A stretch of 61,336 bases of DNA, the filler included, from Rhabdomonas costata (Eukaryota), in NCBI GenBank assembly GCA_019059605.1. It is 20 parts of 20 records of this genome, joined end to end, with 100 filler letters (N's around TTAATTAATTAA, not from the genome) between each part and the next. Parts side by side here need not be neighbours in the genome. Positions count along the whole stretch, not along the records: positions 33,813 to 36,785 come from JAHMHO010001628.1; 19 more parts are not named here. One strand, 5' to 3'. The translations under genes were made by a program, and so were the position numbers. How positions within the stretch are numbered: position 1 is the stretch's first letter; every line of letters starts with the position of its first letter. The notes beneath the pieces were generated by a model. That model saw only the letters and a list, made by a program, of their open reading frames with translations, was not told the DNA's origin and searched no databases. Positions 3,077-36,904 of this stretch are shown here, piece by piece.

Positions 3077-3798
3077 GGGTTTTTTTTTTGGGGAGTGGGG
3101 GTTGACCGGTTTAACGTCGTAAAAGGTGAGTGAGGATATCAGATTTATAATGGGGTTCCTTTTCTCGGTGTTAGAGGTGTTTCAGGCGTTAGAGGACGGA
3201 CTTCGGTGAATTTATCCAAAGAGGGCGATGAACGGTTCCCAGGAGATGGCACACCTAGCAAACCTAGGGGCAGCGTTATCTTAGTGGTGAAGGGAAGCGC
3301 GGTCGGAGCAGGCGGGGAGTTTTTGTAATCATGCGCTCCAAAGGCGAAACATGAAGGCGTTTTCGAGTGGCCAAGCATTCATGGTTTTGTACCTAGAGTT
3401 TTGCCGTCCCACTGAACCCAACAGGGTTAAGAATAGGAAAGGAGGATTTCTAGTTCCCTTCTTCACCGGTCTATCGAAGAAGGGAATTTCCTCCGGCACC
3501 CTCACTACCGCGCGTACCAAGGCAAAAATAAAAATTCGACGCTTTTAAACGAACCTGCCAGTTCTTCCCAAATGAAAGAAACGCACGGTTCTCTTGAAAT
3601 CAAAATGAAGCCCACTTTTCAGAACAAAGCAAACCAAGGGTCGAAGTTGTCTGCATGAAATAGCCAACCAGCACAGGTGGCCGACAGAGTCCAAAGAAGG
3701 ATCCAGAAGCTGCCAGCTCCCGTCACAACCCCCAACAAAACACCACTGGCATTGAACTGAAGCGATCATTCCTAAAAACAAAATGTTGTGAACTTTTT

Positions 3799-5517: not shown

Positions 5518-7338
5518 ATTGGAGGGCTTGCTTTTTCCAATTAGACGTGCGTCAAAAGAAAATAAAAGCAGAACAAGAAGCAAAAAGGCGAATCAATTAA
5601 TGACCTGAAGAAGAAGCAAGCACAGTCAGGAAGGCAGAACGGGGGATGCACCGAGCGGTCGTTTGACGATGACAAGTCAGCGCAGCTTGAACCAATTGGT
5701 GCTCCGGCGAAAAGCCACAAAAAAAGAAACAGAACAATGACTTAAATCGGGAATTTGTGCAGTAAAGTCCATAATCCCTGCCCTCCAGGGTCCACGTTTC
5801 TGCATGCTCCCCGTCCGAAAGTTCATGTGGGGGGTTTTACAGGTTCCGCCAGAACACGCATCCCGCCCCTAAAACATACGCCCGCTACAAAACTCTCACG
5901 CCACATCGCGATGCGTATTCCAGTCAAGCTTTCCAGTCAAGGGTTGAGATTCTACGGAGGACGCGTCATCACAGGGAGTACCACATTCCTAGCGGATGCT
6001 GTGGCGAGCGCCATCGCCACACCACACCACCACACCAAACACACCCACCACNNNNNNNNNNNNNNNNNNNNNNNNNNNNNNNNNNNNNNNNNNNNTTAAT
6101 TAATTAANNNNNNNNNNNNNNNNNNNNNNNNNNNNNNNNNNNNNNNNNNNNTGTTGTGTGTGTGTGCGAATATAAATGTCGAAGTTTTTTTCCGGTTGTA
6201 TTCGGGTCTTTTGTCCTTCCCTGCTCCAGGGGACGGACAAATAAGGTAGATATAGCTTGCTTCCAACGGATACGTGGAGAAGATCCCTAAGAGTGCAGAA
6301 TATAAAGCAAGGTACGACGGCTTGGGAGAGCCGCACCGCGCGCACTGGGGCGGCAGCCCCCGCAAAATGGGTGCCTCCCTCAGCTGACTTCTTGAAAGCA
6401 AAAGAAAGGTCACACTGTGGACAAAGAATTGGGCAAAAAAAATGCAAACGTTGCGGACCACAAGCAGATGGGAAGACAGAAGTTCGGTTATGCTTGACTT
6501 GGACGGAAGTTCCAGCCCCTGCCTCTTCCTGTTAGGAATTTATGGAGTGAGGTTGGGATTGGGGCCGTGCCCTGACCCTACAAGTCGACTTGGGGGAGCT
6601 GCAAAAACAGCGAAAACGGACTTTCGAAGCAAGCCAAATAACAATGTTCCGTGAAAGAGGAATGTAGATGTGATGGACGTGGGGCATTGGTTTCGAAATT
6701 GCATGTGGCAATGAAATGGGGTTTCTCTGGGACATGAAGAGGTCATGAGAAGGTTGGCATTGGTTAGACCACCAATGAAGATGGAGAGTGTGCTGGGGTG
6801 GATAAAAGAGAAAAGAGGCAACGTGAGGAGAAATGGGTCACTGCGCGACGGAAGCGGAGAGGATCCCCATCCAAAGTGAATCGAGAATCTCGGCACGAGC
6901 ACCATAGTTGCGGTATTCTAGTCCAACTCTCTCCCCTGATGTCTTGTTCATACCTCTTCCACCCTGCTTCCACGAAAGTTTAGGGCAGTGTGCTGTCAGG
7001 TTCAACCCCGTGGCCCCTCCTCAAAAACCAGGAAAAGGAACTCACTTGTGCCTGGCGCAATGATCCACTAATGAACCTCTTCGGTGGTTGTTCTCGAAGC
7101 GGTCAACACCAAAAAGTTCCGACCATCACCCCAACCCCAGTCAATGATGAGTATTTTCTCTCAGAAGACACCCGGAGGTCAACCTCACTCCACCGACAAG
7201 GAACCGTTCAGCCTGAGCTTGCTGACAACAATTCATATCCGTCAAGGGAATGGCTGGTGCCTGGGCAAGTCCTGCCTCAAGGCTGTGGAGCATGTCTCCA
7301 GTGGGCACGCCTAGCCTCTTTCCATCAACCCGATATTG

Positions 7339-8674
7339 TCAGGAGGACAACCGGTCACCCTTTTGTTGGAAGTGTGGATTGTAGGAGAGGTCGTCTGTCG
7401 GGAAGGGCACGCCCTGCATTGGATGCCAAGGAGCGAACTCGACCCAGTTGCGAAAAGTGGGGGACATCAGGGCCTCGTACGCCACGCAGCCGAAGAGAAA
7501 CACCCCAAAAGCCCCGAGAAGGGCCCACCACGACGCAAGAGCCATGGTAAAGCCCATCACGAGCAGTGTGGGGAAAAGCATCACCACCAGCCACTGAAGA
7601 CATGACAGGAAGGCATGACACAACCCCCCACACCACACAGAGAGACGCCTCCCTTCTTCTTTTTCTTCTTCTTCTTCTTCTTCCACTCAAAGTATCGCAG
7701 TCAGTTTTCTAAATTCCATCCTATCTCTGCCTCGCATCGATCAGTGTTTTTTGGTCAGCAAATGCAAGTACCCTCGGCGCTATGCGAATGAATGTCACGC
7801 ATTTGTGTTTGGAGAGGCATCGTGCATTTGTGCATTGTGCATTTGTGTTTGTGAAGGTGCGCTCACGACCGGAAACGGCAGTGGTATCCTGAACGGCCGG
7901 GGCCAGTGCGGAAACGCCCACCGCAAGTACAGAAAGGCCGAGAACTCAATGAATGCCGCAATGATGTACAGCAAGTTCAGCATCATCGTCAGTTTCCCAA
8001 AAACCACCAGTACCGATCCCAGCAGAACAGCGGTCAGGCTGAGCAGAATTCCCAGTGTTGGGGTACCGTGCCGAGACCGTCGCGCAAAGCATAGCGGAAG
8101 GAACCCTCGGTCCGCCATCCCTGAAAAGAGTTCATAAGCGCTTTTCGACCCACCAAACTTCCATACAGGTGACCTTGCGGGCCTGAGAGTTTCTGCGGAT
8201 TCGAATCGACGCAGCTTCGGTGATATATCAAATAATCACATAGAACTGGGCTAACTGACCCTAACACTCCGAATTCAAAATATTTTGGTTTAGCCTTTGT
8301 CTCGGATGACGGAAGATGGCTCAACCCAAACACCACACTCTCTTTCTGGTGCGTGTGGTACGTCAATGCCCTGATTAATGCCTTAGTGTGTTAAGGATGC
8401 AACGAATCACAGCTGTGATACATCTAAACTAAAATCGCCGCGTTGAGAAAAAACGATGGTTTCTGTGTTGTTGTTATTTGACGAAACGCAGCCGCCCCTT
8501 CAATGAAGTACACACATAAAAAGCACTCTCAAGCCCACCCACGCACCCACAAGCTGAAAACTGTCAGAGCTCATTTCCGCCTCAAATTGGCCCAGGTTGG
8601 AGAGCGCTGACGCCCCAATCATTCCCCACTGAAGGGGCCAACCGCCCACAGCTTTGGCAACATCCGTGTATAGC
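7339..8674 (-). CDS. APC-superfamily amino acid/polyamine transporter (LAT/PUT/RMV1-like), 3' exons 8674-8547, 8120-7867, 7593-7339
   Basis: The spliced product contains [48 protein letters not shown] and FLYLRWAFPHWPRPFRIP. GT-AG junctions are in frame. Confidence 0.9.
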
Positions 8675-9323
8675 CTGAGCGCGCAGAAGCACATTCGCAC
8701 GAATGCACACCGCCAGCAAACAAAAAGCTGGAAAAAATAATGAATAAGGTTGCCAGGCAAAATCGCTGATTGTTACAGCCATGCCTCGCCGTCAGGAGAT
8801 TTCCGCTCAGAAAAACGGCCAAGGAGCCACGCACACAAGAGAGCAAGAGAGCGGACATGGCAGGGGGGATCGGAAGCAAACTCACTTAATGCGACGGTTA
8901 AGCCGACGCTGCCCAGTTCCCCAATCCATTGCTTCATTCCCAATGCACTGATCCCGAGCTTGCCACTGAAAACCACCCGACCGATAGCCCCGAGCATTGC
9001 CGGCGACAACGACAGCGCTTATCATTCGCATTGATATGGCCCACGTGAAGGCATGAGGAGGCGGGGTACGACCAATGTTGCAACACAAACGCGTCTCTCT
9101 TCACTCGTTTCTATGCCCAACACCCNNNNNNNNNNNNNNNNNNNNNNNNNNNNNNNNNNNNNNNNNNNNTTAATTAATTAANNNNNNNNNNNNNNNNNNN
9201 NNNNNNNNNNNNNNNNNNNNNNNNNTGTGTGGTGGTGGTGGAGGTGTTGGTGTTGGTGCCTGCGCTTCTCCTTCTGCCGCTGCGGCTGCTGCTTCGGGTG
9301 CTTCCCCTGTGCCTGTTGCTCAG

Positions 9324-12198: not shown

Positions 12199-13099
12199 NN
12201 NNNNNNNNNNNNNNNNNNNNNNNNNNNNNNNNNNNNNNNNNNTTAATTAATTAANNNNNNNNNNNNNNNNNNNNNNNNNNNNNNNNNNNNNNNNNNNNTG
12301 TCAGTGGGTTTATGGCTGGAGGGTGTGTGGCGTTGAGGGCTTCGTGTCATTGCTTCTTGTGATGTGCTTGGTGTGTTACGCTGTGTTAGTGCTTGCTGTG
12401 TCAGAGGATGTGTGGGGTTGAGGGCTGATGTTGGGTTCGTGTTGATGGGTTCGTGTTGATGGGTTCGTGGGGTTCGTGAGGTTCGCGGTGTTGGCATAGC
12501 TTGGGTGAGTGCATTCTGTGTTTGTGTTCTTCGCGCTTCTGAGGTGGTAGGGTGGATGTTGTTGGTGAGTTAGTGCGTAATGGTAACGGTATCAGTATGA
12601 CTGTGAGTGAAGAATGCAGTAACTCGGCATGACTCAGAGGGAGAGCAGAAAGCAAGATGAACCCTCCTACCTGCCGGTGGTCATCCAATCCTTCTATCAT
12701 TCTATCATACTACGCATTGCTCGCTGACGCACCCATGCTTCATACCGTCTCTGCATTCCTGAACCCAAAGTGTATAGGGTGTAGGAATGCATTGAGGGGT
12801 TTATGCTCTACTCCGCTACGCTGCGTGACCTTCCTTCCCACAACGGTAAGACATTCACCTCCTACTCCGCGATGCCCTTACGACCATCGCTACGTGCCCT
12901 TCACCTCTACCTGTATTGGTGCTCCTGTGGCTACGCCAGGACGGATCTACACGTACCGCCTAATGGTAGCGGTGGTGAGTGGAGAGGAGTTACAAGTGGG
13001 GGTTAGAGATGTTTATGCTGGTATGCTTGTTGTTGGTGAGCGGTGGTATTGGAATCTCACAGTGGAAATCTTAGTGCTTGTTCAAGTTTCCTTTGTGCT

Positions 13100-14560
13100 T
13101 GAAAAACGGGTTCATCAGCCTGCTCGTGCATGCCAGCTGGTCAACGGGGTCCAGATACTTCGTCTCAAATGTGATCAGCTCGCTGGAATGGAAAAAGGGC
13201 CTCATCTTCTTCCGAGTGTGTGATGGAAATTCAATATCGAAGGTGTTATTAGTGGTCTGCCTCTTGATCTTGTAAGGATTAACAGCCTTTGGTGTCAGGG
13301 GGCTAGCGGGGCCCAACTGGTTCCGATGGTGCTTTCTCTGGTTAATCAAGACGTCCTGCCCAACTACAAATTCACAATTGGCCCGCTTGATGTTGCGGAA
13401 CTCCGCTGCTATTGCCAGTTAATGGTATATGGCACGGTACACAAAACCCCAGTAGTAGTTCAGCTGCGCAAGCCTTTCCTTGGTCGTCACCATGCTCTCG
13501 CCGGTTAGCCTCTCCTCGTCGAAGTTGTGGACGTCCACGAAGAAGCTAGGGTGGTAGCCCACGTTCAAGAAGTATGGGCTTAGATCTGTGCATCCGAGGG
13601 GGGCGTCGTTGATGGCGATCTCAACAAAGTCCAGTGAAGGTAGTTGGGCAGCCTCCAATTACTGACTTCCTGCATTCTGGCGAGTACAATTGTCCACAGC
13701 ACATGCTTCATTGTCTGGTTCGTTTTCTCCGATGCGCCATTCGTATGCGTATTGAACGGTGAGTCATGCGCTGCTTGGTTTCCATAATGTCGCACAGAGC
13801 CTTCCAGAAAGCCCTCGTGAACTTGGTGTCCCTGTCGGAAATGATGCCGGATGGAAATCCCCTATGAAGCACAAATACATCTTTAACACTTGGTGTGCCT
13901 TCACTTCGTCCGAGCATGGAATCAAGATCACCTGCTTTGAAGCACGGTCTGTGATGGTCAGCACCTAATTAAAAATATGTCCCTGTGCCGTTTTGACAGT
14001 CTGAAGGTTCGTCCAGTCCAAGTAAATGGACTTCCACTGCCTCATGGGCATCTCCAATAGTTTCATGTGGCCTTGTGGAAGATGATGTTGTGCCTTGGCC
14101 TGTTAACATGCCACGCAAGTCCTGCAACAACGGCTCACGAGCCTCCGGTAATGTTCAATTCTAAACCGTCTCCTCACAAGGCAGCTTCCGCTGCTCTTTC
14201 CTAATCTGGCACTCCAGGATCCAAGGCAGGAAGTGATCCGTGTTTCCTGTGTAGGCATGGAATTGAGGGTCTTTCTACATCAAATTCCTGAACTTGTATG
14301 CTTGTAATTAGGATTCCAACTACTCGATGAGATGTTGATGGGCTTGAGCACTGCACTCAGAAAACATCTTCTGCGCCACGAGCATCTCACTTTGCATTCG
14401 CTGCTTTGCTTGCAACGGAGCGGCCGTTGCTTGCGCGATAATCTGAGCGAGCAGATCAAAGGTGATGGAAACAGTCCATCCTGGCTAAGGTGGTCCACTC
14501 ATTGATTGCAATTAGCCTTGGGAATTTTGGGAAAGACATCTAGGGAGTGAAAAACGCAGT
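13100..14560 (-). mobile_element. Degenerate Ty3/gypsy LTR retrotransposon pol (integrase, probable RNase H end)
   Basis: Frameshifted fragments: CRTCVAC...LPQGHMKLLEMP..W; LTITDRASKQVILIPC; HRGFPSGIISDRDTKFTRAFWKALC; HTNGASEKTNQTMKHVL; LSPYFLNVGYHP; PYKIKRQ...FHSSEL. Confidence 0.88.
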
Positions 14561-15375: not shown

Positions 15376-15462
15376 TGTTGTGGTGACATTATTAAACAAC
15401 CCTGGGTGCATCATCTCATGAGATGATGCACCCAGGGTTGTTTAATAATGTCTCCACAACGA
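15376..15462. repeat. Palindrome with no loop at contig start
   Basis: gacattattaaacaaccctgggtgcatcatctca|tgagatgatgcacccagggttgtttaataatgtc. Confidence 0.9.
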
Positions 15463-15649
15463 CGCGTGAACAAAAAATGCTCTTCCTGTGTAACTTCAGA
15501 ACTAGCAACCAATATTTTGGTGGGCTCGGTACAAAATCTGAACAGAACTGTATTGAGGGCAAAAAACCGCTCGTACAAAAAGTGCGAGTCAGTTTGTCGC
15601 GACCTGGAAAAAAATGGTGACGTGTTGCTGTGGCGCGTTTCAAGAATAC

Positions 15650-15880
15650 CTGACGGTAGTTTCCTCGGACCATCATTCCAGTGGGCACCTTGCGCGCTGG
15701 ATACTGGAAGGTGTGCGGCTCGGCCTGGGGCGAATAGTCACCAAATGCAAGTTCCTCAAAGTGGACTTTGACTCCCATCTTTGAAGTGGTTTTCAGGGAA
15801 CGAAGGTTTCGCACTGGGGCATGCACAAGGAAGTAGAGAGTCTCGGTCTGCTCCATTCCTTCCTCCTGCAAAGTCGAAAA
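15650..15880 (-). CDS. Rho GDP-dissociation inhibitor-like exon
   Basis: EEGMEQTETLYFLVHAPVRNLRSLKTTSKMGVKVHFEELAFGDYSPQAEPHTFQYPARKVPTGMMVRGNYR follows the RhoGDI pattern (G.KV....LGxYxP..E......PSGM..RG.Y). Donor is CAG|GTATTC. The acceptor is at 15881 or 15866. Confidence 0.7.
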
Positions 15881-16082
15881 CTGCTTGAAACGACCCAAAA
15901 GCATGAAGCAAAGAAATGGTTTCAAAACGTCATTGACTATCTTGGTTACGTTTTGCGGATCAACAACAACAACGGGCAGAAAATCGTCAGCATTCCCCCA
16001 GCTACCAGCTAGAGCAATCATCAGTCCCCATTCCATCTTTCTTTCTATGTAGTGGCTAGGCTTTTCTCTGATGCGAGCGCAT

Positions 16083-16393
16083 CCATTCTCGTTCACGAGG
16101 GTTGTTCATTCGCCTCAGTGGGGTCCGAGAATCAGCCATTCAAACCGTCCACACCACATTCGCGACTAACGTGTCTGAAAGGACCTCGCATTGGGAATGC
16201 ACTCGTGGGGTAAATGCGCGTTTACTTCTGTCTTCTGTCTTTGCCTGGACGACCGTCGGCTACTCGGTGATGATCGTGATGATGATAATGTGAGTGTTTA
16301 TTAATTTAGGTTATTGCACTCTAATCATAGTTTGGAGGCCAGCGGTCCGGTGTAGGAGACGCATTGAGACGCACTTTCCCTCTCCTTGATTCC
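16083..16393 (+). repeat. Diverged direct repeat, copy A (copy B at 17521-17747)
   Basis: Shared blocks ccattctcgttcacgag, cttctgtcttctgt...gcctggacgacc, gatgataatgtgag, gaggccagcggtccggtg and agacgcactttccctctcctt. Copy A carries an extra insert of about 70 bp. Confidence 0.85.
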
Positions 16394-18479: not shown

Positions 18480-19375
18480 GTTTGATGATAGTGCGACGGA
18501 CGAGGAGCCTCTCTGATGGATTATGGAACCATCAAGTTTGTGATTCGAGCCGTCTTCGGGGATAAACTCTTCCCCTTCCTCCCAATCTGCAGTGGTGTTA
18601 TCGCCTGCTTGGTGATGGAACGCCACGGTATGTCTGGCGGTGGGAGTCCGAGGTGCAGGCGTCTTCGATTTCTCTTTCTACAATCGGTGGTGGCGGTTCA
18701 TCTACCTGTACGCGCAACACATACTGGATGATGTCACTTGCGTGGAAGACATTGTGAAACTTCCGGGTAATCCGACTTGAAAAATTCAGCTTGAACGTCC
18801 GATGTCCTATTGTTTTGTTGATGATGAAGTGGCAGGTTGCCTTTGTGACTAAACGGTGGGAACCTCGGATTTTGTACCTCTCGTTCTTACGAGAGCTAAC
18901 TAGGACCACGTTTCCTACTCGGAAGCGGTGATCTTTTTTCGCTCGACGTATATGTACTGTTGCTGCAAACAGAAGTCTGAAATATGGTTCCAATCATCCA
19001 GGAGTCCATTAACAATCTGCTGGGGCCTTTCCTATATATGATTGATGGGACTACTGTACTGGGTGGTGGGTGTAGAAAGTCGGGTGATATCCAAGGTTGA
19101 TGCAGTACGGCAAATAATAGGTCTCGACCAGCGGAGCGTTGTTCACCGCCATCAAGCCAATAAATGTCTTCGTACTGAGCCACTCGAAGCAATTGCTTGA
19201 TTGTGGCATTCATTCTTTCGTCAAGTCCATTGGTATGAGGATGAAATACGCTCGAGGTTTGGATCCGAATGCTGAGGTGGGAACACACAGTCTCCCAAAA
19301 GGATGACATGAATCCAGAGTCTCTGTCGAAGATGATTAAGGCCGTTTCTGTTACCCTACCACATGAAGACCTCAC
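18480..19375 (-). mobile_element. Degenerate Ty3/gypsy integrase (core plus GPY/F module)
   Basis: IIFDRDSGFMSSFWETVCSHLSIRIQTSSVFHPHTNGLDERMNATIKQLLR and FRVGNVVLVS...FHNVFHAS, with frameshifts and stops. Confidence 0.88.
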
Positions 19376-22124: not shown

Positions 22125-24491
22125 GACTGCCCGCCAATGAATTCGTTCACGTCGCCGTGTTTCCCTCCGCCACCGGCAACTGCACCGTGGAGGCAGGAAA
22201 TCCACTCACGGTCCTCCTCAACACCTCCGACCCCTCCAGGTGGCGCTGGCGGGGAAGTTTTTCGATGCTTTCAAGATTTGACTGCCGCCAACCCCACCTC
22301 CCACCTCACCACCCAAAAAAAACCTTGGTATGGCATGTTTGTTTTACGTGCCTCCTCTTGTTCCTTCAGTGTGGCGTACGTGCCCTTCACGCTGACTGTG
22401 GGGTATACCGCGGGTTTCTCGGTTGATGTCCTGGTTTCAATTTCAAGCCTCACTTTGGGAACCCTTTTGTTGCCCTCTGCCGTGGCGATTATGCGCACCC
22501 CGACCATTTCAATTATGAACAGCTCTGTGCCGCTCTCAGGTCTTCGTTTTGTGCGTCATTTTTGTTCGTTTCGCTTTGGCACACAACCACGTATATCACC
22601 GACAAAGGGATCACAAGATGTTTTGGAAAAAACAAATATGCAGAAATCATTGATTTGTCGACTATCTTTGGGTGCTGAGTATCTTCATTCTGTGTGTCAA
22701 ACAAGCAAGAATCGTCATAGTCCGGCCAGTTTGCCTTCCCCTCTTTCAGGTGGAAATATGACCATTACCGTAACTGTTGCTGGGCTGCCTGCCAACACCG
22801 GGATCTACAACCTCTCCGTAAACCTTGACGGGCTGAGGCTATGGCGCTCGCCCTTTCAGGACTGTACCACTGTCTTCCCCTCGGACAGCTCCCGGGGTCT
22901 GCCTTTTATTACCACTTGCTCCATAATTCTGGAGGACACCCAGGCCAGTCTGACTCTGGACGCATACGTTCACCCCTCTGCCGCACGTGTTGCGATGAAA
23001 GCCACGCTGAGCTCACTCAACTCAACCTGGGACTGCGCTCCGACACCCATCGTCCAGGAGGCATCCTGGGATGTTCTTCTTCCCACCATCGCTCTTGCAA
23101 TCACCACTGTTCCTCAGTTTGTACGTGGGATCTACAACCCGGTGACATTTGCAGTGGCAAACTCTGCGACTGTTGCGCCCGCGAGAGCTGTTGGGGTGTA
23201 TCTTCTACTTCAAGGGCTGCTTCCAAGCACGGTCCCCTCATTCTGTACCGTGATTTATGACAACTCTGATTTTCCGGGATGCTCCCTATACTGTCCTTTA
23301 TGGGACTTTGAACCGGGAAATGCCTACAACTGGACCCTCATGCTGATTTCCACCGCTCCGTCGCTGACGACCCTTCAGTTACAAAGCACGCTCTATTCAG
23401 TGGATACGGACGCGGTTCCTGGATCCTTCGTCTCACCCATGATGCTCTCTGACCTGCAGATCACTCTCTTCACCGCTGTGTGGTTTCCGGGGAACTCTTT
23501 CAACGTCACGGTGGAGTTTGTGAACTTTAGTCCCTCTGAAGCTGACGGGGCATTGTTTCTGCTCCAGCTCTACCCAGGTGACATGGATACCCTGGGATCG
23601 TATACCTACTTGGGAGTGGACCAGTGGCCAGGTTTGAACCTGGTGTCAGGAAATCAGGCTCAAGTTCAGATGACGAACATCTCGGCAAACTCTTCGGTGA
23701 TGCTAACCACCACGCTGGTTTTCTCAAGCTGTTCCGCTGGTGCCTTCTCGCTCGTGGCCACGATTCACGACCCAAACGGCGACTCAAACCCGAGCGCATG
23801 CGTCCAGACTCTCTACCTGAGCAAGGTTGGGCCGCAGTTCATCTACTCGGTGGTGCCTGTAGATCCGCAAACGTGTCCCTACAACCCGGATTCCACCGTT
23901 GCATTCAGTTACAATGCCACAGTGACGGCCACTGACGTTCCACTTGCGTCCACATCGATTTCCCTTTCTGTTTACGGTGGAACGGTGGCCTCTGTAGACA
24001 ATGGAGACTGCACTATTACGTCAGCATCCCAGATCAGCTGCACGATTCCTGATCTAGCTCCGGGGCAAGTGCACACACTTCTCTCTGCGCTCTCGGCTGT
24101 TGTTGACAGCATGGTTCCGGATGGCCAGCTCGCCTTCATTTCGCAGGCTTCTGCGCAATGCTTCGAGGATGCATTGCCTTGCCCGTGGTCCTGCGGCAAC
24201 TCCAGCTATGCCGTGAATCCCCCTCTGGTGATTACTACAGTGAGTCTTACGGGCCCTCTAGTGGCCGCCCGTAGTGATGGAGGTTTGGTTCAGTTGGTAA
24301 ACAATGGGAGCTACGGCACATTGGGTCCACAAGTTATACTCTCCATCACAGCGATGACCGGAGTGACACTATTCATTCCACCTGACTCTCCCATCTTCTC
24401 ATTGTGCACTTTCCCGGTTCCGTATCAGCTGTTTTGCGTTCTTTCGGCAACCCTGAACCCAGCTGACGTGCTCGAACTGCCCCACAACCCC
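22125..24491 (+). CDS. Large surface/secreted protein with DUF11/Ig-like beta domains, partial (exons about 22125-22239, 22369-22539, 22750-24491+)
   Basis: The last exon is open for more than 570 codons and is rich in Thr/Ser/Val with many NxS/T sites. SDLQITL...GNSFNVTVEFVNFSPSEA and CTIPDLAPG resemble DUF11 repeats. Confidence 0.7.
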
Positions 24492-24596
24492 NNNNNNNNN
24501 NNNNNNNNNNNNNNNNNNNNNNNNNNNNNNNNNNNTTAATTAATTAANNNNNNNNNNNNNNNNNNNNNNNNNNNNNNNNNNNNNNNNNNNNGTGGG

Positions 24597-24992: not shown

Positions 24993-26692
24993 GAGCATCC
25001 ACCACATCCTGAGAGGCCGCACGGTGCTGGCTGGGCTCTTCCCCGTCACGCTGCGGCGGGTGGGGCCAGCCGGGGCGGAGCCCCCTGTGCGCACCCTCCC
25101 CACGGACTGGAGCAGCCCCCCACGGGAGTGGCGTGAGGTCGGGAACCCCGAGGCCGCCGTGGACACGTCCCGGCAGTCCCTCGAGAACGTCCAGGTCCCT
25201 CGTGATGTGTGTGTGTTGTTGTGTATCGTGCTTTCTTTGCCTTTCCTCAGACAGCAGTCTTATGCGTGAGTGTTTGGTTATTTGAACGTCAGTTTGTCGC
25301 TGACTTAACCTTCTCCGTCCGTTCTTTTCTTGCTCTTACGTTTTCTGATACTCTGCCATGGGAGAAGGGGTGGGTGCCCTTCTGCGGACTGTTCTGTGGT
25401 ACCCTCACATTGTCTTCTTTCCTGTCCTTGCTCAACCAATCTCAAGCGAAAAGCATGAGCAGAACTTTCTAAAAGCCTTGCCTGTACAGAAATATTCACA
25501 ATATGCGGATTTCCTTTCCAGCTGCACATGGTGCGCGTACAACTCACCGCGGTCGATTGCAGGTGGGAGATTGTTTTCAAACCCTCCTGGCGGTGACCCA
25601 TCTCACTCGGGGGCTTTCCAAAGGCTCCACAATGAGCTCTGATTTTTTCTCCCTAGGTTTGGCCTTCGACCTCAGGGCAGCATCGGAAGAGGCTGGTTGA
25701 CCTCTGTGCTGTGCTACGGAGCAAGAACGCCGGTTTGTTTGTGGAGTGCGGGTGGCTTCGGGAGTTTAGAATTTAGAACTTAAGAACTTTTAAGGTCTAT
25801 TGCGTTGGACGAAGGCTGGACACAAAGACACTGGGTGCTTCTCAGCGATGGCGATACGATGCTCTCCGAGGCAATACCGAAGAACGTTTTTAAGATCATT
25901 CTCACCCCACTTTGGTGGTGGTTTGTCAGGGATCAACGAGCTGACCTATGACTTTCTGTTTGACTCCCGGCCGTGGTACGAAGCAGTGAAGCACAGCGGG
26001 CTGCTGGCCTCTGCTGAGGTGGCCCGCCTCCTGGGCATTGCCCCGGCTCGAGTGCTGGGATGCTATTTTACTGACGTCATTCCAGCAATCAAGGCGCGCA
26101 CCCCCCCCCCTCTTCCTGTTCGCCCCGGGGCCAGAGCCTCTGAGCATCCCTCGCATTCCTTGTTTCTTGAATTGTAGAACTGAGTTTTCGAGTTTTTCCT
26201 CGTGAGCGCTGTTTGGCATTGGAATGGCTCGTTTACCCCTGAATGCCGCACAATTGAAGTTTTGATGGGATTGATGTAATACCTTAATGCTAGGCTCCTA
26301 TTCCTATTCCTATTCCTATTCATACTAAAGTGAGTGCTTTGACCTCAACGAAAAATCGGTCGCGGCACTGCGGCACAGGCATATGCGTAATGGCATCCGC
26401 AATGCTACGAAGCGAATGGTGTTCTTCATTTATTTTCTTGTTTTTCGCTAGTTGGTGGTCATTTTAGAAAACACATTTTTAGAAAACATGTCTCGCCCTA
26501 AAGTGCAGCGGACAATATCTTTGAAAGAGCAGAATCACTTGTCTTTGACGACTTTTGAGTGCTTCCTTTGCTGTGGCTCAGATCACGGTGGACCGCGAGC
26601 CCTTTGCCGGTGACCACGGGGACCGGGACGTTTTTGGGGCACAGCAGTACAGCAGGCTGCTTGGGCTGGAGATTCCAGTTGACGGTGCCTAA
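24993..26692 (+). CDS. DUF4387-domain protein (probable AtuA-like DUF1446 + DUF4387 fusion), 3' exons 24993-25194, 25657-25732, 25930-26093, 26582-26692
   Basis: The spliced C-terminus RLVDLCAVLRSKNAG|INELTYDFLFDSRPWYEAVKHSGLL...DVIPAIK|ITVDREPFAGDHGDRDVFGAQQYSRLL matches the DUF4387 pattern (RSKNAG..ELT.D; AIK.T; GD.D..GAQQ). Confidence 0.85.
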
Positions 26693-27662: not shown

Positions 27663-29575
27663 GGTTTGGGGTACTACGGCGTCGGCGGCGAGCAGCGCGT
27701 GTAAGGTCTCGTGCATATCAAAAAGCACCGCGTCGTGGAGGCACGTCGTCATTACCGCCGCGCAGTCGCCGGGCGGGCCCGGGCGCAGCCGTAGTACTCC
27801 ACAGTCCAGGCTGGGCTGCAGCAGCGCCGCAGTGACGCTGTCGTTGCGGGCCGCCAGAGCGGCTGCGAACGGCAGGCGGGCCAAGTCCTGCACCCAAACA
27901 CACCCCTGGCAACACCTGACACACACGTCCACCCGGAGACAGCCTGTGAGCCTATTTTGTAAAGAGGAACGGGAGTGAAGGAGTGAGGGATATTATCGTA
28001 GGTCTCCCCTTGAATCTCGAGGAATGCTCGGAAGAAGGGAAGTGGGTAGAACGGCAGCAACGGAAGGAACGGAGTGGGAAAGTAGAGAAAAGAGCAAAAA
28101 CAAAAGCGTCCACGGTTGCGAAAGTAAAAGAAGAACCCGAAGAGCAGAAGAAGGCTAGTAAGAAGAGTAGTAAGTGTATCACACTGCATCAAGATAATCA
28201 ACGATGTGTCACCGAACACCGACCAAAAAACTGACGATTTTTTTTGTTTTCATAGTTTTTCTTTTAATTTTTTCTGACTTGGAACAGAGAGAAAAAAGTG
28301 GAAAAATGGACCCAGGCTTACTTATGAGCGGAATTCTGTTACAATCCTTGCAAAATGCACCCATGGACAGCTACGCACTCGGGCATACCATCAATCTCGA
28401 AAAAGGTGAGCAAGAGAGTAAAAAGAAATAAAAAAGCGAAAAGACAAAAAAAAAGGCATAGCTTGCACACCTCCTCAGCCTGCACCACCACAAGGGCGGT
28501 GCAATCGTAGAAACATCGGTACTGGCCAATGCACCCGGTCTCTTCCCACTTCACCTCAAACTCGCAGCTGTTATTTTTAACGTCTCGCAGGACTCGCCCC
28601 CTCTTCCCGGCGCCACCATCGCTGTCACTTGTTCCCCAGTGCGGGCCTCGAGCGACCAGGTCGTTGACCTTCACCTAAAACCCGTACACACAAAAAAAAG
28701 AAGCATAAAATATAGGCCCCACCCCATTGCAAAACTGTCTTATTCCCTACACCAGTGTTCGACTGAAAACGCTGGTAAAGAATGCAAACGTAAAATAATG
28801 AGAAGAATCCAGGATGGCCTGTTCGCCGATATGACGGGATAGGAATAGGAGGGAATGTGCGCTGAGCAGTGCAGATGTGTTGGAGCACAGCTCTCCCCAT
28901 TCCATTCCACGCCTAACATTTCCCCAACTGCACGGAACACTCCACTTAATTTAATTATTTCAGATATAGAAAAAACCCGCCGTTTCTAACCTCTCTGCCA
29001 TCGCATAGGTCGCTCACAATACTTGCTGAACGAACCAAGGGGGAAAAGGTGCCCCTTAACAACATTTTAGCCTGAGTAACATGGAAACGTTTAAAACTAT
29101 CGTACGCATCCATACCAGCCTAGCGGCATTTTTGAGCGTTCCCAGGACTTCAATTGGAAACTCATAACAAGCTGAATTCTTAGTTTTGGGATGTAACTTA
29201 CCAGGCAAAATACAGGCAGGAGGAAAATAAGGGAAATTGGAGTTTCGCACATACAGCAAAAGCAGGCGCGTGGGCGAGGTAGAAGGATACCACGTTGAAG
29301 GAACACCAAGAAAACCCGGTGGTGAGCTTGGTCACCAGCCCACGCACGCATGCACACACACACACCTTCATGGCGTTTACCGCGGCCCCGGCCTGAAGAA
29401 GGACCTGCACGAGCCCCACGGGGGTCTCCTTCCTGCCCGAGGCGATGAAGAGAGCAGTTCGGAACTGTATGTCCTGGAAAAAATGACACAATACGATGGA
29501 GAAAAACGATAAAGACAGATAAAGACAAACAATAAAGTGAAGGGGAAGGCTGTGTACCTCGTCCCATCTGCTCAT
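27663..29575 (-). CDS. Ankyrin-repeat + MIB/HERC2-domain protein, partial (exons about 29575-29558, 29473-29366, 28674-28471, 27887-27663)
   Basis: RTALFIASG...LVQVLLQAGAAVNA (ankyrin); LVARGPHWGTSDSDGGAGKRGRV...VKWEETG..GQYR (MIB/HERC2); TCLHDAV...LLAADA (ankyrin-like). Confidence 0.7.
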
Positions 29576-31027: not shown

Positions 31028-33073
31028 CTAATCATTGAAGGGGTCCATCGAAGCAAAGGCGGAAGTGAAGTCGATAGCAGCAACTCCGTGCGTCTTGGTA
31101 ACCTCGGCCTGGTAGCCGGTGCACAACATGCTCAGCTTGGGAAGATAAGGAGATGCCGCCAAGGCCTGCCACCCAGACACTCCAATATTGTTGTTGGTGA
31201 AGAACAATGTGGTGAGGTTGGGAAAGTTAGCGGAGCCCGAGAGGGCTTGAACTCCACGATCTCCAAACTTGTTGCTCGCGAGATCCAAAAACGTGAGGCT
31301 GGTAAGCACAGTTGAGAGCGCAAGAGCTTCCACACCCGCGTCACCGATCTGGTTCCGGCTGAAATTCAAAAACGTGAGGCTCGGAAGGTGGAACGAGTTA
31401 GCAAGCCCCTGAATGCCCAGGTCTCCAACCTGGTTGTCCTCAGCTTCTAGGCGAGTGAGGCAGGAAAAGTTCTGCGACTGTGCGAAGGTTTCCATTCCAG
31501 CATCACCCACCCCGTTCGACAGGATATGTAGGGAGGCTAATCTGGGAAACGTTGAGGAAAGAGCCAGCGCTTGCATTCCAGCGGCCCCAAGTTGGCTGCA
31601 TTCCAGGTTCAGCGTCGTGAGTTCGGAGAAGGTGGTGGAAGACGTCAGTGCGCGAATGCCATCGACCCCCACAAAACATCCTCGGAGGTTCAAGGAAGTC
31701 AGCTGAGGAAAGTGTGAGTAGGCGAGTGCCCGCAGTCCCAGATCACCGATCTGGTTGTAGCTGAGTTCCAAGGTGCGGAGAGCAGTATAGTTAGCGGAGG
31801 TCAACAGTTCCTGCCATCCATCAGGTCCCGCTTGGACTTGACTAACATTCAAGGACACTAAAGACGAAAAATGAGACGATCTGGCAAGCGCTTGGAGTCC
31901 CGAGACCCCGATCGGGTTCTCACTGAGGTTCAGAGAGGTGAGCCGGGGAAAATTCGAGGACTCCGCAAATGCCTGCATTCCGGGTGGGCCGATCTCGTTC
32001 CTATGAATGTGCAAGTGGGCCAAACACGGGAAGGGCGCCGAAGAGACAAGTGCCTGTATGCCAGAGTCGCGGAAGAAGTTGCCACCGAAATTTAGCGCGG
32101 TGAGACGGGAAAAGTTCCGCGAATCGACGAAGGCCTGCACTCCCGAATGTCCGATCTGGTTGTCGCTTGCATTCAAGAAGGTGAGTCTGGGAAAATAAGT
32201 GGAGGATGCAAGTGTTTGAATTCCTTCAAGCCCAATCGGACTACTACTATTGCTGTGAACTTTCAAGGAGGTAAGCTTGGGAAAGCGCGGTGAAGTTGCA
32301 AGTGCGCGCATTCCCTGAGGACCAATATTGTTGGACTTTAGATCCAGCGAGAGAAGGTCGGAGAAGTTAGCGCTGGCAGCGAATGCCTCCACACCTGGAG
32401 ACCCGACTGAGTTGCCACCCAAGTTTAGGAAGGCCAGCTTGGGCAGGTGGGATGAAGCCGAAAGCGCTTGCAACCCAGAACTTCCGATATTGTTGAAAGC
32501 TGCATCGAAGGAAGTGAGGCTAGGAAACCGCCCTGAAGAGAAAGCTTGCATCCCGGCATCCCCAATCATAGCAAAACTGACTATCAGATGGACCAGGTTG
32601 GAAGAGAAGGGTGAACTAGCAATGGCTGCGAGACCGGGGTCACCGATCTCGTTGTTTTGGACATCTAAGTAGGTAAGGCGGGCAAACGAAAGTGAACTCG
32701 TCAGTGGTTCTAATCCGGGGACCGGGCGAGGTCTCACGCGCGTGCGGCAGCCAACACGCAAGGATGTCAATGGAAGACGCCAAGCCGGATTTGCAAGAGC
32801 AGATAGAATGGCGCCGGAGAGCTGAAGGTCCTCAATCCAAAGTTCCCTTGAGGACCGCAAAACTCGGATGGGAAGATGAGCTACACTGCGGTGGTGTGGA
32901 AAGACCGAGCAGCGGAACGAAAGTTTCCACTCCGGAGCGATGCACGTGTCCACCAGCTTTTGGAAGTTGCTGCAGGCCAGGCGTAGCTGAACCTGCTCCG
33001 GAGTACTCAGAAACCAGAAAGTTATAACCCAAGTGTTTTCTGGAAGGTCAACTATTGTCAAAGGACCAGGCAT
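31028..33073 (-). CDS. F-box / leucine-rich repeat protein (RI-like LRRs), intronless; paralogue of 3799-5517
   Basis: DLPENTWVITFWFLS...LRLACSNFQKLVD is F-box-like. About 18 repeats of FPxLTxLxxxxNxIGxxGxxALAxSxx follow. Confidence 0.9.
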   Translation of the reverse strand: MPGPLTIVDLPENTWVITFWFLSTPEQVQLRLACSNFQKLVDTCIAPEWKLSFRCSVFPHHRSVAHLPIRVLRSSRELWIEDLQLSGAILSALANPAWRLPLTSLRVGCRTRVRPRPVPGLEPLTSSLSFARLTYLDVQNNEIGDPGLAAIASSPFSSNLVHLIVSFAMIGDAGMQAFSSGRFPSLTSFDAAFNNIGSSGLQALSASSHLPKLAFLNLGGNSVGSPGVEAFAASANFSDLLSLDLKSNNIGPQGMRALATSPRFPKLTSLKVHSNSSSPIGLEGIQTLASSTYFPRLTFLNASDNQIGHSGVQAFVDSRNFSRLTALNFGGNFFRDSGIQALVSSAPFPCLAHLHIHRNEIGPPGMQAFAESSNFPRLTSLNLSENPIGVSGLQALARSSHFSSLVSLNVSQVQAGPDGWQELLTSANYTALRTLELSYNQIGDLGLRALAYSHFPQLTSLNLRGCFVGVDGIRALTSSTTFSELTTLNLECSQLGAAGMQALALSSTFPRLASLHILSNGVGDAGMETFAQSQNFSCLTRLEAEDNQVGDLGIQGLANSFHLPSLTFLNFSRNQIGDAGVEALALSTVLTSLTFLDLASNKFGDRGVQALSGSANFPNLTTLFFTNNNIGVSGWQALAASPYLPKLSMLCTGYQAEVTKTHGVAAIDFTSAFASMDPFND

Positions 33074-33812: not shown

Positions 33813-33939
33813 AATGAGTGAAATCACTTTGTTCGATGACAAGGAACTTCCAGATAACAGGTATGGTGAAGTTCGCACAAGCATTAATGGGCTCCCTCGT
33901 GTGGGGATCTGGCCCCACCAGAGCATCCCAAAAGAAAAC
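33813..33939 (+). repeat. 127-bp exact terminal direct repeat (left); identical to 36659-36785
   Basis: aatgagtgaaatcactttg...cccaaaagaaaac occupies the very first and very last 127 bases of the contig. Confidence 0.97.
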
Positions 33940-34091
33940 GATCACAAAAACACATAAACAACACATATCCTCTGCAAAGGTCCGCAAAGACAGAGGGGCA
34001 CTCCACAGCGTATGTACAGTGCTCGGGAGAAAAGCGAGCTTAAATACAGTTCTCGTCCCGTTAGCCTTGGAGAATCAGCGCCAGGTCCTCA

Positions 34092-36071
34092 CTACTTCTT
34101 CGAGGTTTCGACTGGGATCGGCGTGAGCAGCGGGAAGTTCGGTGTGAATGTGTCGAGAAACGACAGCAGCCGCGGGAACGCCGCCTTATCTCCCACAACT
34201 GTCAGGGAACCACTGGCGATCGCCTCGTCCGGAGATTTTGCACCGCTTCCAACGGCTTTGAAAGAATCTCCCTTGAAGGTGAGGGTGGCGACAGCCTCCT
34301 TGCTCTGCGTTTTCGCCCTGTGATTCAGCGTCCCGTTCTCCAGCGTCACGACGATGGTCTCTGAGGTGTCCGGAAAGACCAAGTTGAGCACCATGTATGT
34401 GTCGCCGGCCTTGTTTGTGTTTAGACGAATGCCGAGGTAGTCGAGGAACATCTCATTGGTAATAGCTCGGATCATGTCCGGGTGGGTCGATTGCGAAACC
34501 TTCGGCTTTTGCACCCCCAGGCGAAGCTCCTGCGCCCCGCAAAGATAGAAATTACGCCATGGACCGGACTCTGCCTGGAATCCCATTTGCTCTAGGGCGT
34601 CCGCCTCGAGCTCGCGGGCAGCTGTGTTTGATGGGTCAGCAAAAACGACGCGATTCATGACCTCCGCAACCCATCGGTACTCCCCTTTGGCAAAATCTTC
34701 CCTGGCCTTTTGAAGAACAGCCTCTGCGCCCCCCATGTAAGACACGTACTTCTTCGCCGCCTTGACTGGGGGCAGCAGGTGCAGTAGCGCAGGATTGCCA
34801 TCAAACCAGCCCAGATATAGAACATAGGTTGCCTTTACGTTGTGGTACAGGGTGCCATAGTACCCACGGAGCGCCCAGCACTTTTGAAGCTTTTCAGGAA
34901 AGGCCAGCATGTTGGCAATGTCATCCGGGCCGTACCCAGAGTTAGCCAAGCGAAGAGTTTGGTCATTAATAAAGCGGTACGCGTCTCGTCCAATGCTAAG
35001 CATTTGCGTAACTCGAGAATTTCCGAAGACTGGCCAATGGTGCATCCCGTACATCACTTCGGACTGTGCACCCCAGCGTGCCAGGGTGTCGTCCAAGCAC
35101 TTCGACCATGCCAAGGGATCGCGGATTTTCGCCCCACGAAGAGTATATGTGTTGTGCAGGGTGTGGACGCAGTTCTCGGCCGCCGTCACCGCCTTCAGCT
35201 CCTTGATGTACCAGTGCATCTCCGCGGGACCCTCAGTGCCGGGCGCAAGCAGGAACTCAAAGTGAAGCCCATCAAGCACCAAGGTCTGGCCGTTTTCGCT
35301 GATGAGCAGTGTGGGAGCTATCAAGGTTATCGCCCCATCCGAGCAGGTCAGACCAAGACCGGTCCCGATGTTCTGAGTAGCTGATGGCTCCAGAACGTTT
35401 CCGTACATGAAATCCGCCCTTCGACCCATGATCGTGCCGGCGTAGAGATTCTCAGATGCAGCGGCTTCCATGAACCCGACAGGGGCAACCACCTGGATCT
35501 TCCCTGACTTCACATCAGCCTCATCGATAACTCCCCGCACACCTCCGTAATGGTCCACATGGCTGTGGGAATAGATAACTGCCTTCACAGGCTTCTGCGG
35601 ACGGTGGGCGAGATACAACTCCAAGGAAGCCTTCGCAGTCTCCGCAGAGATCAGCGGGTCCACAACAATAATCCCGGTGTCTCCTTCGATGATGGTCATG
35701 TTGGAAAGGTCAGCATTGCGGACCTGATACAAGCGTTCGGTCACCTTGAACAACCCGCCTTTCATCACAAGGCAGGACTCGCGCCACAAGCTGGGGTTCA
35801 CGGTGTCCGGGGCCGGCTTGTCCGGGTCGATGAACGCGAATTTGGTTAGATCCCAAACCACTTTTCCAGTGGAATCCTTTATCACACCGTTGTTCGGCAA
35901 TGATGCGATGTGTCCACGACTGGCATCTTCGAAGTCCTGCTTATCACTGAAGTCGAGCTGAGTCTTCAATGCAGAATTGGCGGCCAAGGTAGCTGCAGAA
36001 GCTTTTCCTGGGCAGCATTGGGGTGCAATTTCTCTTGATTTCGTGGAACCTTTCCGGCAGGAAGCGAACAT
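34092..36071 (-). CDS. Alkyl/aryl-sulfatase, SdsA1/YjcS/BDS1 family (metallo-beta-lactamase fold + dimerisation + SCP2-like domain), intronless
   Basis: Motifs DFSDKQDFEDASRG, PDTVNPSLWR, GLFKVTERLYQVR..DLSNMT, IYSHSHVDHYGG, HNTYTLRGAKIRD, GMHHWP, RGYYGT, YLGWFDGNP and AESGPWRNFYL. Probable start is MFASC at 36071. Confidence 0.96.
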   Translation of the reverse strand: MFASCRKGSTKSREIAPQCCPGKASAATLAANSALKTQLDFSDKQDFEDASRGHIASLPNNGVIKDSTGKVVWDLTKFAFIDPDKPAPDTVNPSLWRESCLVMKGGLFKVTERLYQVRNADLSNMTIIEGDTGIIVVDPLISAETAKASLELYLAHRPQKPVKAVIYSHSHVDHYGGVRGVIDEADVKSGKIQVVAPVGFMEAAASENLYAGTIMGRRADFMYGNVLEPSATQNIGTGLGLTCSDGAITLIAPTLLISENGQTLVLDGLHFEFLLAPGTEGPAEMHWYIKELKAVTAAENCVHTLHNTYTLRGAKIRDPLAWSKCLDDTLARWGAQSEVMYGMHHWPVFGNSRVTQMLSIGRDAYRFINDQTLRLANSGYGPDDIANMLAFPEKLQKCWALRGYYGTLYHNVKATYVLYLGWFDGNPALLHLLPPVKAAKKYVSYMGGAEAVLQKAREDFAKGEYRWVAEVMNRVVFADPSNTAARELEADALEQMGFQAESGPWRNFYLCGAQELRLGVQKPKVSQSTHPDMIRAITNEMFLDYLGIRLNTNKAGDTYMVLNLVFPDTSETIVVTLENGTLNHRAKTQSKEAVATLTFKGDSFKAVGSGAKSPDEAIASGSLTVVGDKAAFPRLLSFLDTFTPNFPLLTPIPVETSKK

Positions 36072-36658
36072 TTGCAGGACTTTCCGCAGATAACACAAAA
36101 CTGGCAAAGAAAAAAAATACGCTTCATGAACAGCTCAGTGCATCATGAACAGCCCAGTGCGGTTCGAAAAGAAGGACGTTGCACGCAAATGTTGCAAAAT
36201 AACATAACACAACTTTTCTCATGCTATTTAAGCAACTTCTTACAAAAGCTGGCAGCACGCAGGTTTCCTAAGGTGCCGCAAATTCCGTTGAGCTGAAAAA
36301 ATCTGCCATAACAATGCAGACGAAACCGGCTGCCAAATCCTTCGGCCCCCATCCGATAAGCGGTCGCTTCCTCATAAAACAGGGAGTCAGAAATCACACA
36401 ACAACATAACGTCTGAAAGAAAAACTGAGGTGAGAAATACTTCAGCTAACATGCAACGAAAACTTGTTACGGATCAAGGTGAAGAGCAACATAATGCACA
36501 GGCAAACTCACAAGGAGCACAGCATTGTCGCTTGAAAGTAAACAAGCGACAACAGATAGAGAAGTTGAAGTGCTTCCTCAGTGGCAAAGCACCAAAAAGC
36601 AGACCTACAAAAGACATGCATAGCTGTGAATATGCAGACAATACAAGAAGAAATGAGA

Positions 36659-36785
36659 AATGAGTGAAATCACTTTGTTCGATGACAAGGAACTTCCAGA
36701 TAACAGGTATGGTGAAGTTCGCACAAGCATTAATGGGCTCCCTCGTGTGGGGATCTGGCCCCACCAGAGCATCCCAAAAGAAAAC
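36659..36785 (+). repeat. 127-bp exact terminal direct repeat (right)
   Basis: Identical to 33813-33939. Confidence 0.97.
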
Positions 36786-36904
36786 NNNNNNNNNNNNNNN
36801 NNNNNNNNNNNNNNNNNNNNNNNNNNNNNTTAATTAATTAANNNNNNNNNNNNNNNNNNNNNNNNNNNNNNNNNNNNNNNNNNNNGGGGTGTGTGGGTGC
36901 GTAC

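Follow-up and report, generated by a model that had tools for sequence, protein, structure and literature searches.

What kind of template stands behind a contig that closes on itself and carries a single gene? The question is raised by the contig at positions 33813-36785 of the window, by which we mean the whole stretch of DNA analysed here (61,336 nucleotides: 20 contigs of 2965-2978 bp each, joined by N/TTAATTAATTAA spacers). Its gene is assigned to the alkyl sulfatases, and a first interpretation of this DNA (the sequence-only reading) had described a 2846-bp unit, either circular or tandemly amplified, with this bacterial-type gene as its only content. The contig proved to be a genuine closed cycle at the level of the assembly graph, and the unit it represents has a host-like composition, while its gene groups with bacterial homologues. 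The explanation that we favour, with about an even chance of being right, is a chromosomal head-to-tail array of the 2846-bp unit in the nuclear genome of a poorly sampled microbial eukaryote.

A closed cycle in the assembly graph

The contig starts and ends with the same 127 nucleotides, at 100% identity, and the two copies lie 2846 nucleotides apart from start to start. A terminal overlap of 11 bp or more is found in one of the 20 contigs of the window, solely this one; the 127-mer has no further occurrence anywhere in the window, and an exact repeat of this length cannot be the product of chance. The largest k used by SPAdes is 127, and in a de Bruijn graph a contig with the same k-mer at both ends is a loop edge. 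A dispersed repeat longer than k leads to differing ends, and one shorter than k is not collapsed; because a dispersed repeat gives such ends only if it is exactly k long, the contig represents a real cycle in the graph. The position of the overlap along that cycle is arbitrary and is not a biological junction.

The ends of the other contigs look different. A run of at least nine bases made up only of G and T opens 12 of the 19, and a run of at least ten bases made up only of A and C closes 15 of the 19, with run lengths clustering at 10-11; as a background, G/T-only runs of at least eight bases are found at 1.4% of random internal positions. The corresponding runs in the cyclic contig are 0 (G/T, start) and 5 (A/C, end). 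The sequence-only reading had pointed to the exact 127 bp common to both ends, to the lack of a noisy tail and to a closed-cycle form, and the measurements bear it out on each count, the overlap being exactly of length k, unique among the 20 contigs and free of primer tails.

Examples of the tails are seen at 3077-3093, 6017-6051, 9226-9241 and 36886-36899, and with G/T at the 5' and A/C at the 3' end they are oriented contrary to telomeres. They look like remnants of degenerate G/T amplification primers in the deposited contigs, from which such tails ought to be trimmed, and they suggest a primer-amplified library with coverage in islands of a few kb. A universal amplification primer has a single match in the window, with two mismatches, at the contig end 6035-6052; the match is weak, as 11 of 100 shuffles also give one. 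If the library was indeed primer-amplified, read depth is a poor guide to copy number, so that the comparison of depth with single-copy contigs proposed in the sequence-only reading is a weaker test than it had assumed.

Three kinds of template yield a cycle of this form: a circle; a head-to-tail repeat of at least two copies with its flanks missing or clipped; and a chimeric amplification product that joins the downstream to the upstream end. The amplification put forward in the sequence-only reading is one possibility: the identical contig would result from just two head-to-tail copies whose flanks escaped amplification, or from a chimeric product, and the sequence by itself does not tell a repeat from a free circle of DNA or from an artefact of amplification.

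A predicted alkyl sulfatase of bacterial ancestry

The sole long open reading frame (ORF) of the contig (34092-36107, minus strand) has its first ATG at 36071, which gives a protein of 659 aa; the gene is uninterrupted and thus intronless. Matches to Pfam cover Lactamase_B (3.5e-19), Alkyl_sulf_dimr (4.1e-59, profile positions 2-137 of 139) and Alkyl_sulf_C (1.2e-34, positions 2-125 of 125). Six solved alkyl sulfatases were matched from residues 18-28 to residues 648-652, with E-values of 3e-169 to 7e-236; among them are 7tl5 (7e-236), PSdsA (4nur, 9.5e-234), YjcS (4pdx, 4.6e-189), Pisa1 (2yhe, 2.7e-173) and SdsA1 (2cfu, 3.2e-169), the named structures aligning to the protein over residues 24-651. 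These three domains and full-length matches to solved enzymes agree with the single intronless SdsA1/YjcS-family gene of bacterial type that had been proposed for the unit, and the gene is predicted to encode a full-length alkyl sulfatase of the metallo-beta-lactamase (MBL) fold (type III/S3).

At least 7999 candidates, every one with E<=0.001, were scored in the protein search, and at least 120 homologues were listed. Conservation was assessed on 119 of 120 listed homologues; P0017 was omitted for its garbled C-terminus, and was also left out of the trees described below. The window protein retains 195 of the 202 columns that are conserved at 97% or more among the 119 homologues, the HSHVDH motif at residues 169-174 among them; the other seven are altered, and four of these (G233Q, A281G, W349F and Y498F) are invariant in the other 119 sequences. 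The gene looks functional. The omitted P0017 (573 aa) has 78% identity over 74% of the query, and its C-terminal ~60 residues are unrelated, as they would be after a frameshift.

The predicted enzyme should be a binuclear-zinc hydrolase that converts an alkyl sulfate ester to an alcohol and sulfate, and the role in sulfate-ester scavenging named in the sequence-only reading can reasonably be drawn from family membership. Such an enzyme might serve sulfate supply, carbon use or the breakdown of sulfated lipids from prey. Since it lacks a signal peptide it would be expected to act in the cytosol, unless its start has been set wrongly.

Among the scored candidates the best match is P0001 (EukProt RCo004359; 75% identity, 95% coverage), followed by P0002-P0010 at 69-74% identity. 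Identifiers that begin with RCo belong to transcripts of the euglenid Rhabdomonas costata (PMC8219788). A quick tree was built from the window protein and 45 listed matches, and a careful tree from the window protein and 22; both trees pair the window protein with P0001 as its sister, with a Shimodaira-Hasegawa-like approximate likelihood ratio test (SH-aLRT) value of 85 in the quick tree and ultrafast bootstrap (UFBoot)/SH-aLRT values of 91/90 in the careful one. The sister pair is nested in clades of 9 and 11 rows, each supported at 100/100, and the named clade neighbours are Desulfovibrionaceae: Fundidesulfovibrio, Desulfolutivibrio and a Desulfovibrio metagenome-assembled genome. The trees place the gene inside a Desulfovibrio-like clade, and argue for bacterial ancestry.

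Of 598 stretches matched in a scan of metagenomes, 572 encode relatives, and 80 were kept; the best (L003, 73% identity) lies on a contig of 496,647 bp with closely packed ORFs. A scan of prokaryote genomes matched 602 stretches; relatives are encoded by 580 of them, and the 80 kept are all at or below 64%.

Host-like features of the gene and the unit

A hydrophobic N-terminal segment is absent from the window protein and from P0001, and present in eight of the nine other rows of the 11-row clade. Tetranucleotide composition of the unit correlates with that of the pooled other contigs at r = 0.79, which falls within the range found when each of the 19 others is compared with the rest (0.42-0.88, median 0.76); for equal-length stretches around six bacterial homologues the values are 0.20-0.53. 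The spacer measures 866 bp, whereas in L003 the gaps on either side of the bacterial homologue are ~75-180 bp. On the sense strand the spacer has an excess of T over A (skew 0.28) on both sides of the gene, and in this it resembles the flanks of several neighbouring genes. With its signal peptide absent, its composition host-like and its sister sequence eukaryotic, the sulfatase looks like a laterally acquired gene that has become adapted to its host, rather than a contaminant.

A tandem array as the favoured template

The unit shows no sign of a replication function. No Pfam match at E<=0.01 was found in its 16 other ORFs (47-180 aa), including the ORF that runs across the contig boundary, and no Rfam family at E<=1; the longest inverted repeat in the unit is 18 nt at 83%, and its lowest GC content over 200 bp is 0.41, so that there is no strongly AT-rich stretch. 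Searches for a plasmid or phage backbone returned 51 plasmid records and one phage record that match the core of the coding sequence (CDS) only, at 63-66% (63-64.5% for the eight plasmid records listed). By the Pfam, Rfam, inverted-repeat and plasmid/phage searches, the unit thus lacks the replication protein or recognisable origin that an autonomous replicon would be expected to have. Here, too, the sequence-only reading stands: it had given the spacer as about 0.85 kb, which the measured 866 bp matches, and had seen no Rep, transposase or integrase, in keeping with the 16 other ORFs without a Pfam match.

An array is favoured because circular contigs in short-read assemblies of eukaryotes commonly stem from arrays, because the unit is without signs of replication and because patchy amplification readily explains the missing flanks. 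A 45S ribosomal DNA (rDNA) nuclear tandem array is reported to have emerged as a circular contig in a SPAdes-based assembly (PMC8620147). On this explanation, the sulfatase gene would have been transferred laterally from a Desulfovibrio-like bacterium, and would then have lost its bacterial signal peptide and acquired the sequence composition of its host. The unit would have been duplicated head-to-tail into two or more near-identical copies, each comprising one sulfatase gene and an 866-bp spacer with its own 5' and 3' processing signals, such that gene dosage would rise with the copy number of the unit. The assembler would have collapsed the copies onto a single loop, and the unique flanks would be missing through the patchiness of degenerate-primer amplification. 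Primer tails inside the repeat would have been clipped as tips, since the cycle offers an alternative path, and this would explain why the contig at 33813-36785 alone is without them. Copies identical at k = 127 would imply recent amplification or homogenisation. Recombination between copies may also shed unit-length circles, so that an array and circles could coexist.

We infer an array rather than a circle, as we do the copy number and the substrate, and a number of points weigh against the account given above. The presence of at least two copies and of chromosomal flanks is presumed, and between the unit and the other 19 contigs there is no similarity except chance matches of 18 and 21 nt, so that neither a flank nor a variant copy is seen. 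The contig holds no second, unquestionably eukaryotic gene and no intron. Codon usage is ambiguous, with r = 0.72 against four pooled neighbour ORFs and 0.69 against one bacterial homologue gene, and the missing hydrophobic N-terminus is not specific to eukaryotes: in the wider family, 49 of the other 118 homologues are likewise without one. No near-identical locus was found in the metagenome or prokaryote scans, the best being at 73%. Some RCo transcripts are bacterial contaminants according to their authors (PMC8219788), and P0001 could itself be one of these; one supplement of the R. costata paper contains neither the P0001 transcript identifier nor the word "sulfatase."

Alternative templates

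A first alternative is a free extrachromosomal circle, 2846 bp in size or a multimer of this, with the sulfatase as its only gene; it would be self-maintained or continually excised from a copy in the chromosome, and transcribed all the way round. Such a circle would account directly for an isolated cycle without entry or exit sequence or primer tails. The strand bias of the whole spacer equals that of the gene flanks, consistent with transcription in one direction. The nearest eukaryotic homologue is from a euglenid, and euglenid rDNA is described as residing on extrachromosomal circles (PMC9082867), with ~1000 candidates for extrachromosomal circular DNA (eccDNA) reported in Euglena (bioRxiv 10.1101/2023.11.29.569251); in wine yeast, a transferred segment is reported to have been amplified through a circular intermediate (PMC3053389). 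Against these precedents, a replication gene and an origin-like RNA are absent from the unit, which also has no strongly AT-rich stretch (minimum GC 0.41) and no inverted repeat longer than 18 nt. A euglenid affinity of the host is a lead taken from the sister sequence; one neighbouring ORF has no homologue, and another has its best match at 42%. Stably kept single-gene nuclear circles are moreover very rare, and tandem arrays common. We therefore consider a free circle unlikely, if the most serious of the alternatives. A specific form of it, a nuclear single-gene minicircle in a protist whose only cargo is a transferred bacterial gene, is a little more doubtful still. Such a minicircle might raise and tune the dosage of a foreign enzyme, and it might be the form in which foreign DNA first persisted, before or instead of integration.

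An artefact of amplification and assembly would begin from a single-copy locus: template switching during whole-genome amplification would join the downstream end to the upstream end, and the flanks would remain unamplified. The degenerate G/T primer signature on 12 of 19 starts and 15 of 19 ends, with runs clustering at 10-11, fits amplification of this kind, and coverage in islands of a few kb makes absent flanks plausible; whole-genome amplification is known to yield chimeras, to which libraries of the single-cell type are prone. However, a chimeric join within an island should leave tailed entry and exit branches that break the loop, and the contig shows none. Within the unit, primer-like runs of G/T only or A/C only do not exceed 12 nt, the universal primer has no copy there, and a 2.8-kb loop with a complete gene and both of its flanks is tidier than a random chimera. 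We regard such an artefact as improbable. Were it nevertheless the true origin, the contig would be a useful caution: in a single-cell assembly from a primer-amplified library, a contig that closes on itself should be taken for a circle or an amplification only with unamplified DNA to back it.

That the contig derives from a bacterial contaminant, either a small plasmid or a genome repeat of a eukaryote-associated bacterium, would be in keeping with an intronless gene that nests among bacteria, with bacterial-type relatives (69-74%) nearly as close as the eukaryotic sister (75%), and with a codon-usage correlation of 0.69 to one bacterial homologue. However, the tetranucleotides match eukaryotic contigs (0.79) and are unlike those of bacterial homologue loci (0.20-0.53), and the signal peptide is absent, though found in eight of nine clade relatives. 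The 866-bp non-coding spacer is without a sigma-70-like promoter (none found, 1.6 expected). There is no Rep or plasmid backbone, the 51 plasmid records matching the CDS core only, and a 2.8-kb replicon without a replication function would not be viable. The contaminant explanation is accordingly given very little credence.

A single-copy gene lying between two copies of a dispersed 127-bp direct repeat is scarcely credible: the two 127-mers are indeed all the actual duplication in the contig, but a loop edge requires a repeat of exactly length k, the 127-mer occurs nowhere else in the window, and the primer tails that mark true island ends are absent.

Organisation of the unit

The features of the contig are collected in Table 1. 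The spacer is composed of two parts (587 + 279 bp) and has a GC content of 0.448, against 0.554 in the CDS. The polypyrimidine tract upstream of the gene could be a splice acceptor, either of an intron in the 5' untranslated region or of a trans-splice site; a strict polypyrimidine-AG motif is found upstream of three of six genes, against 15% of random 120-nt stretches, a frequency that is only suggestive. The tract is the one hint of eukaryotic transcript processing in the closed contig. The 19-bp tandem pair is the sole notable internal repeat of the unit, and it may be a promoter or processing element. Terminator-like sites (two, against 3.4 expected) carry no evidential weight, and no tRNA was found in the whole window.

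Table 1. Coordinates of the features of the cyclic contig, as positions in the window
Feature	Position	Strand	Description
Whole contig	33813..36785	.	2973 bp: the 2846-bp unit, followed by its first 127 bp once more; shape of a loop edge in a de Bruijn graph with k=127
127-bp terminal overlap, left copy	33813..33939	.	Within the spacer; on the gene strand it lies 153-279 nt past the stop codon
127-bp terminal overlap, right copy	36659..36785	.	100% identical to the left copy
Predicted alkyl sulfatase CDS	34092..36071	-	659 aa and TAA stop, intronless; GC 0.554, GC at third codon positions (GC3) 0.659; MBL, dimerisation and SCP2-like C-terminal domains
HSHVDH codons (residues 169-174)	35550..35567	-	MBL-fold metal-binding motif HxHxDH; from motif position and direct reading of the sequence
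Upstream part of spacer	36072..36658	-	587 bp; A/T-richer than the CDS, T>A on the sense strand of the gene
Downstream part of spacer	33813..34091	-	279 bp; G/T-rich tract on the sense strand at ~33925-33975; in the cycle continues directly into 36658
Polypyrimidine tract ending in AG	36101..36119	-	TATTTTTTTTCTTTGCCAG; 29 nt before the ATG; splice-acceptor-like
19-bp unit, two tandem copies	36121..36158	.	89-94% identity; 50-87 nt upstream of the ATG

An ATG at 36127 (minus strand) opens another frame, which begins MKRIFFLCQFCVICG... and resembles a signal peptide. Directly after it comes a run of eight T (36109-36116), and one added T would bring the 36127 ATG into frame with the sulfatase. 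This ATG could be a relic of the bacterial signal peptide, the start of an upstream ORF, or the sign of a secreted form concealed by a homopolymer error. Should the AG at 36101-36102 act as a splice acceptor, the mRNA would lose this ATG.

Neighbouring contigs

A Pfam scan of 119 of the 141 ORFs of at least 110 aa marks the neighbouring contigs as eukaryotic, with F-box/leucine-rich repeat (LRR), RhoGDI, Ty3-type SH3 and MIB_HERC2 matches. Two long intronless ORFs at 3799-5583 (-) and 31028-33073 (-) are rich in LRR_6 (each ~6e-68), one of them with an N-terminal F-box; for the F-box/LRR protein the matches are generic LRR proteins only, the best at 42% identity. Fragments of Tf2-1-like SH3 domains from Ty3-type retroelements are found at 13074-13418 (-) and 18601-18993 (-), on two different contigs, so the host genome carries the remains of long terminal repeat (LTR) retroelements. 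At 22137-24539 (+) there is an uninterrupted ORF of 800 aa, an orphan gene of the host: it matches no Pfam family, and a search with it that scored 7999 candidates gave no homologue at E<=0.001.

Partial matches were obtained for AA_permease_2 at 7798-8235 (-), for Rho_GDI at 15416-16096 (-), where profile positions 98-168 only are covered, for DUF4387 at 25794-26174 (+) and for MIB_HERC2 at 28342-28674 (-). Their partial coverage suggests that they are exons of genes that, unlike the sulfatase, contain introns.

Comparison with known systems

The closest known enzymes are the type III (SulfAtlas S3) MBL-fold alkyl sulfatases SdsA1, PSdsA, YjcS and Pisa1, which have the same three-domain build as the window protein, align with it over their full length and share the HxHxDH motif. 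The window protein differs from them in having no signal peptide, in the change of seven conserved columns and in lying on a eukaryote-like contig, and its activity and substrate are predicted ones.

The BDS1 gene of yeast is a bacterial alkyl sulfatase gene taken up by a eukaryote. S3 sulfatases of bacterial ancestry are also reported in tunicates and spiralians, and in Ciona two of the five S3 genes lie side by side (Chr4.174 and Chr4.175; PMC13390645). The gene described here would likewise be an S3 enzyme of bacterial ancestry in a eukaryote; however, its donor clade appears Desulfovibrio-like and its recipient would be a protist, any multiple copies of it would be identical at k = 127, and it is the only content of its unit.

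As for the cycle, the 45S rDNA contig assembled with Shovill/SPAdes is described as the same kind of collapse, of head-to-tail copies of a unit that exceeds the read length; in that case a high coverage of 493x was measured (PMC8620147), whereas in the present case the gene is protein-coding and apparently transferred. The wine yeast segment is a further parallel, in that foreign DNA rose in copy number after its transfer and a circular form was proposed as the intermediate; it differs in comprising 17 kb, several genes and a tested autonomously replicating sequence (PMC3053389), against 2.8 kb, one gene and no recognisable origin here.

Dinoflagellate plastids carry single-gene minicircles. 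Together with the rDNA and eccDNA circles of euglenids, these are small circles of protists with one gene or operon; the unit differs from them in that neither a conserved non-coding core nor inverted repeats were found in it, and its gene is neither ribosomal RNA nor organellar.

If a repeat or a circle is confirmed, the locus would be one at which a transferred bacterial enzyme gene had its dosage raised after transfer, with its export signal gone and its flanks host-like: a compact case of the domestication and amplification of a foreign gene, and a locus at which circles could be tested as intermediates of amplification. That eukaryotes have taken up S3 alkyl sulfatases has been documented before, and the assembly of tandem arrays as circles is routine; set against these known systems, what is new is modest, namely a further recipient lineage, a Desulfovibrio-like donor clade, a probable euglenid sister and a possible amplification after transfer.

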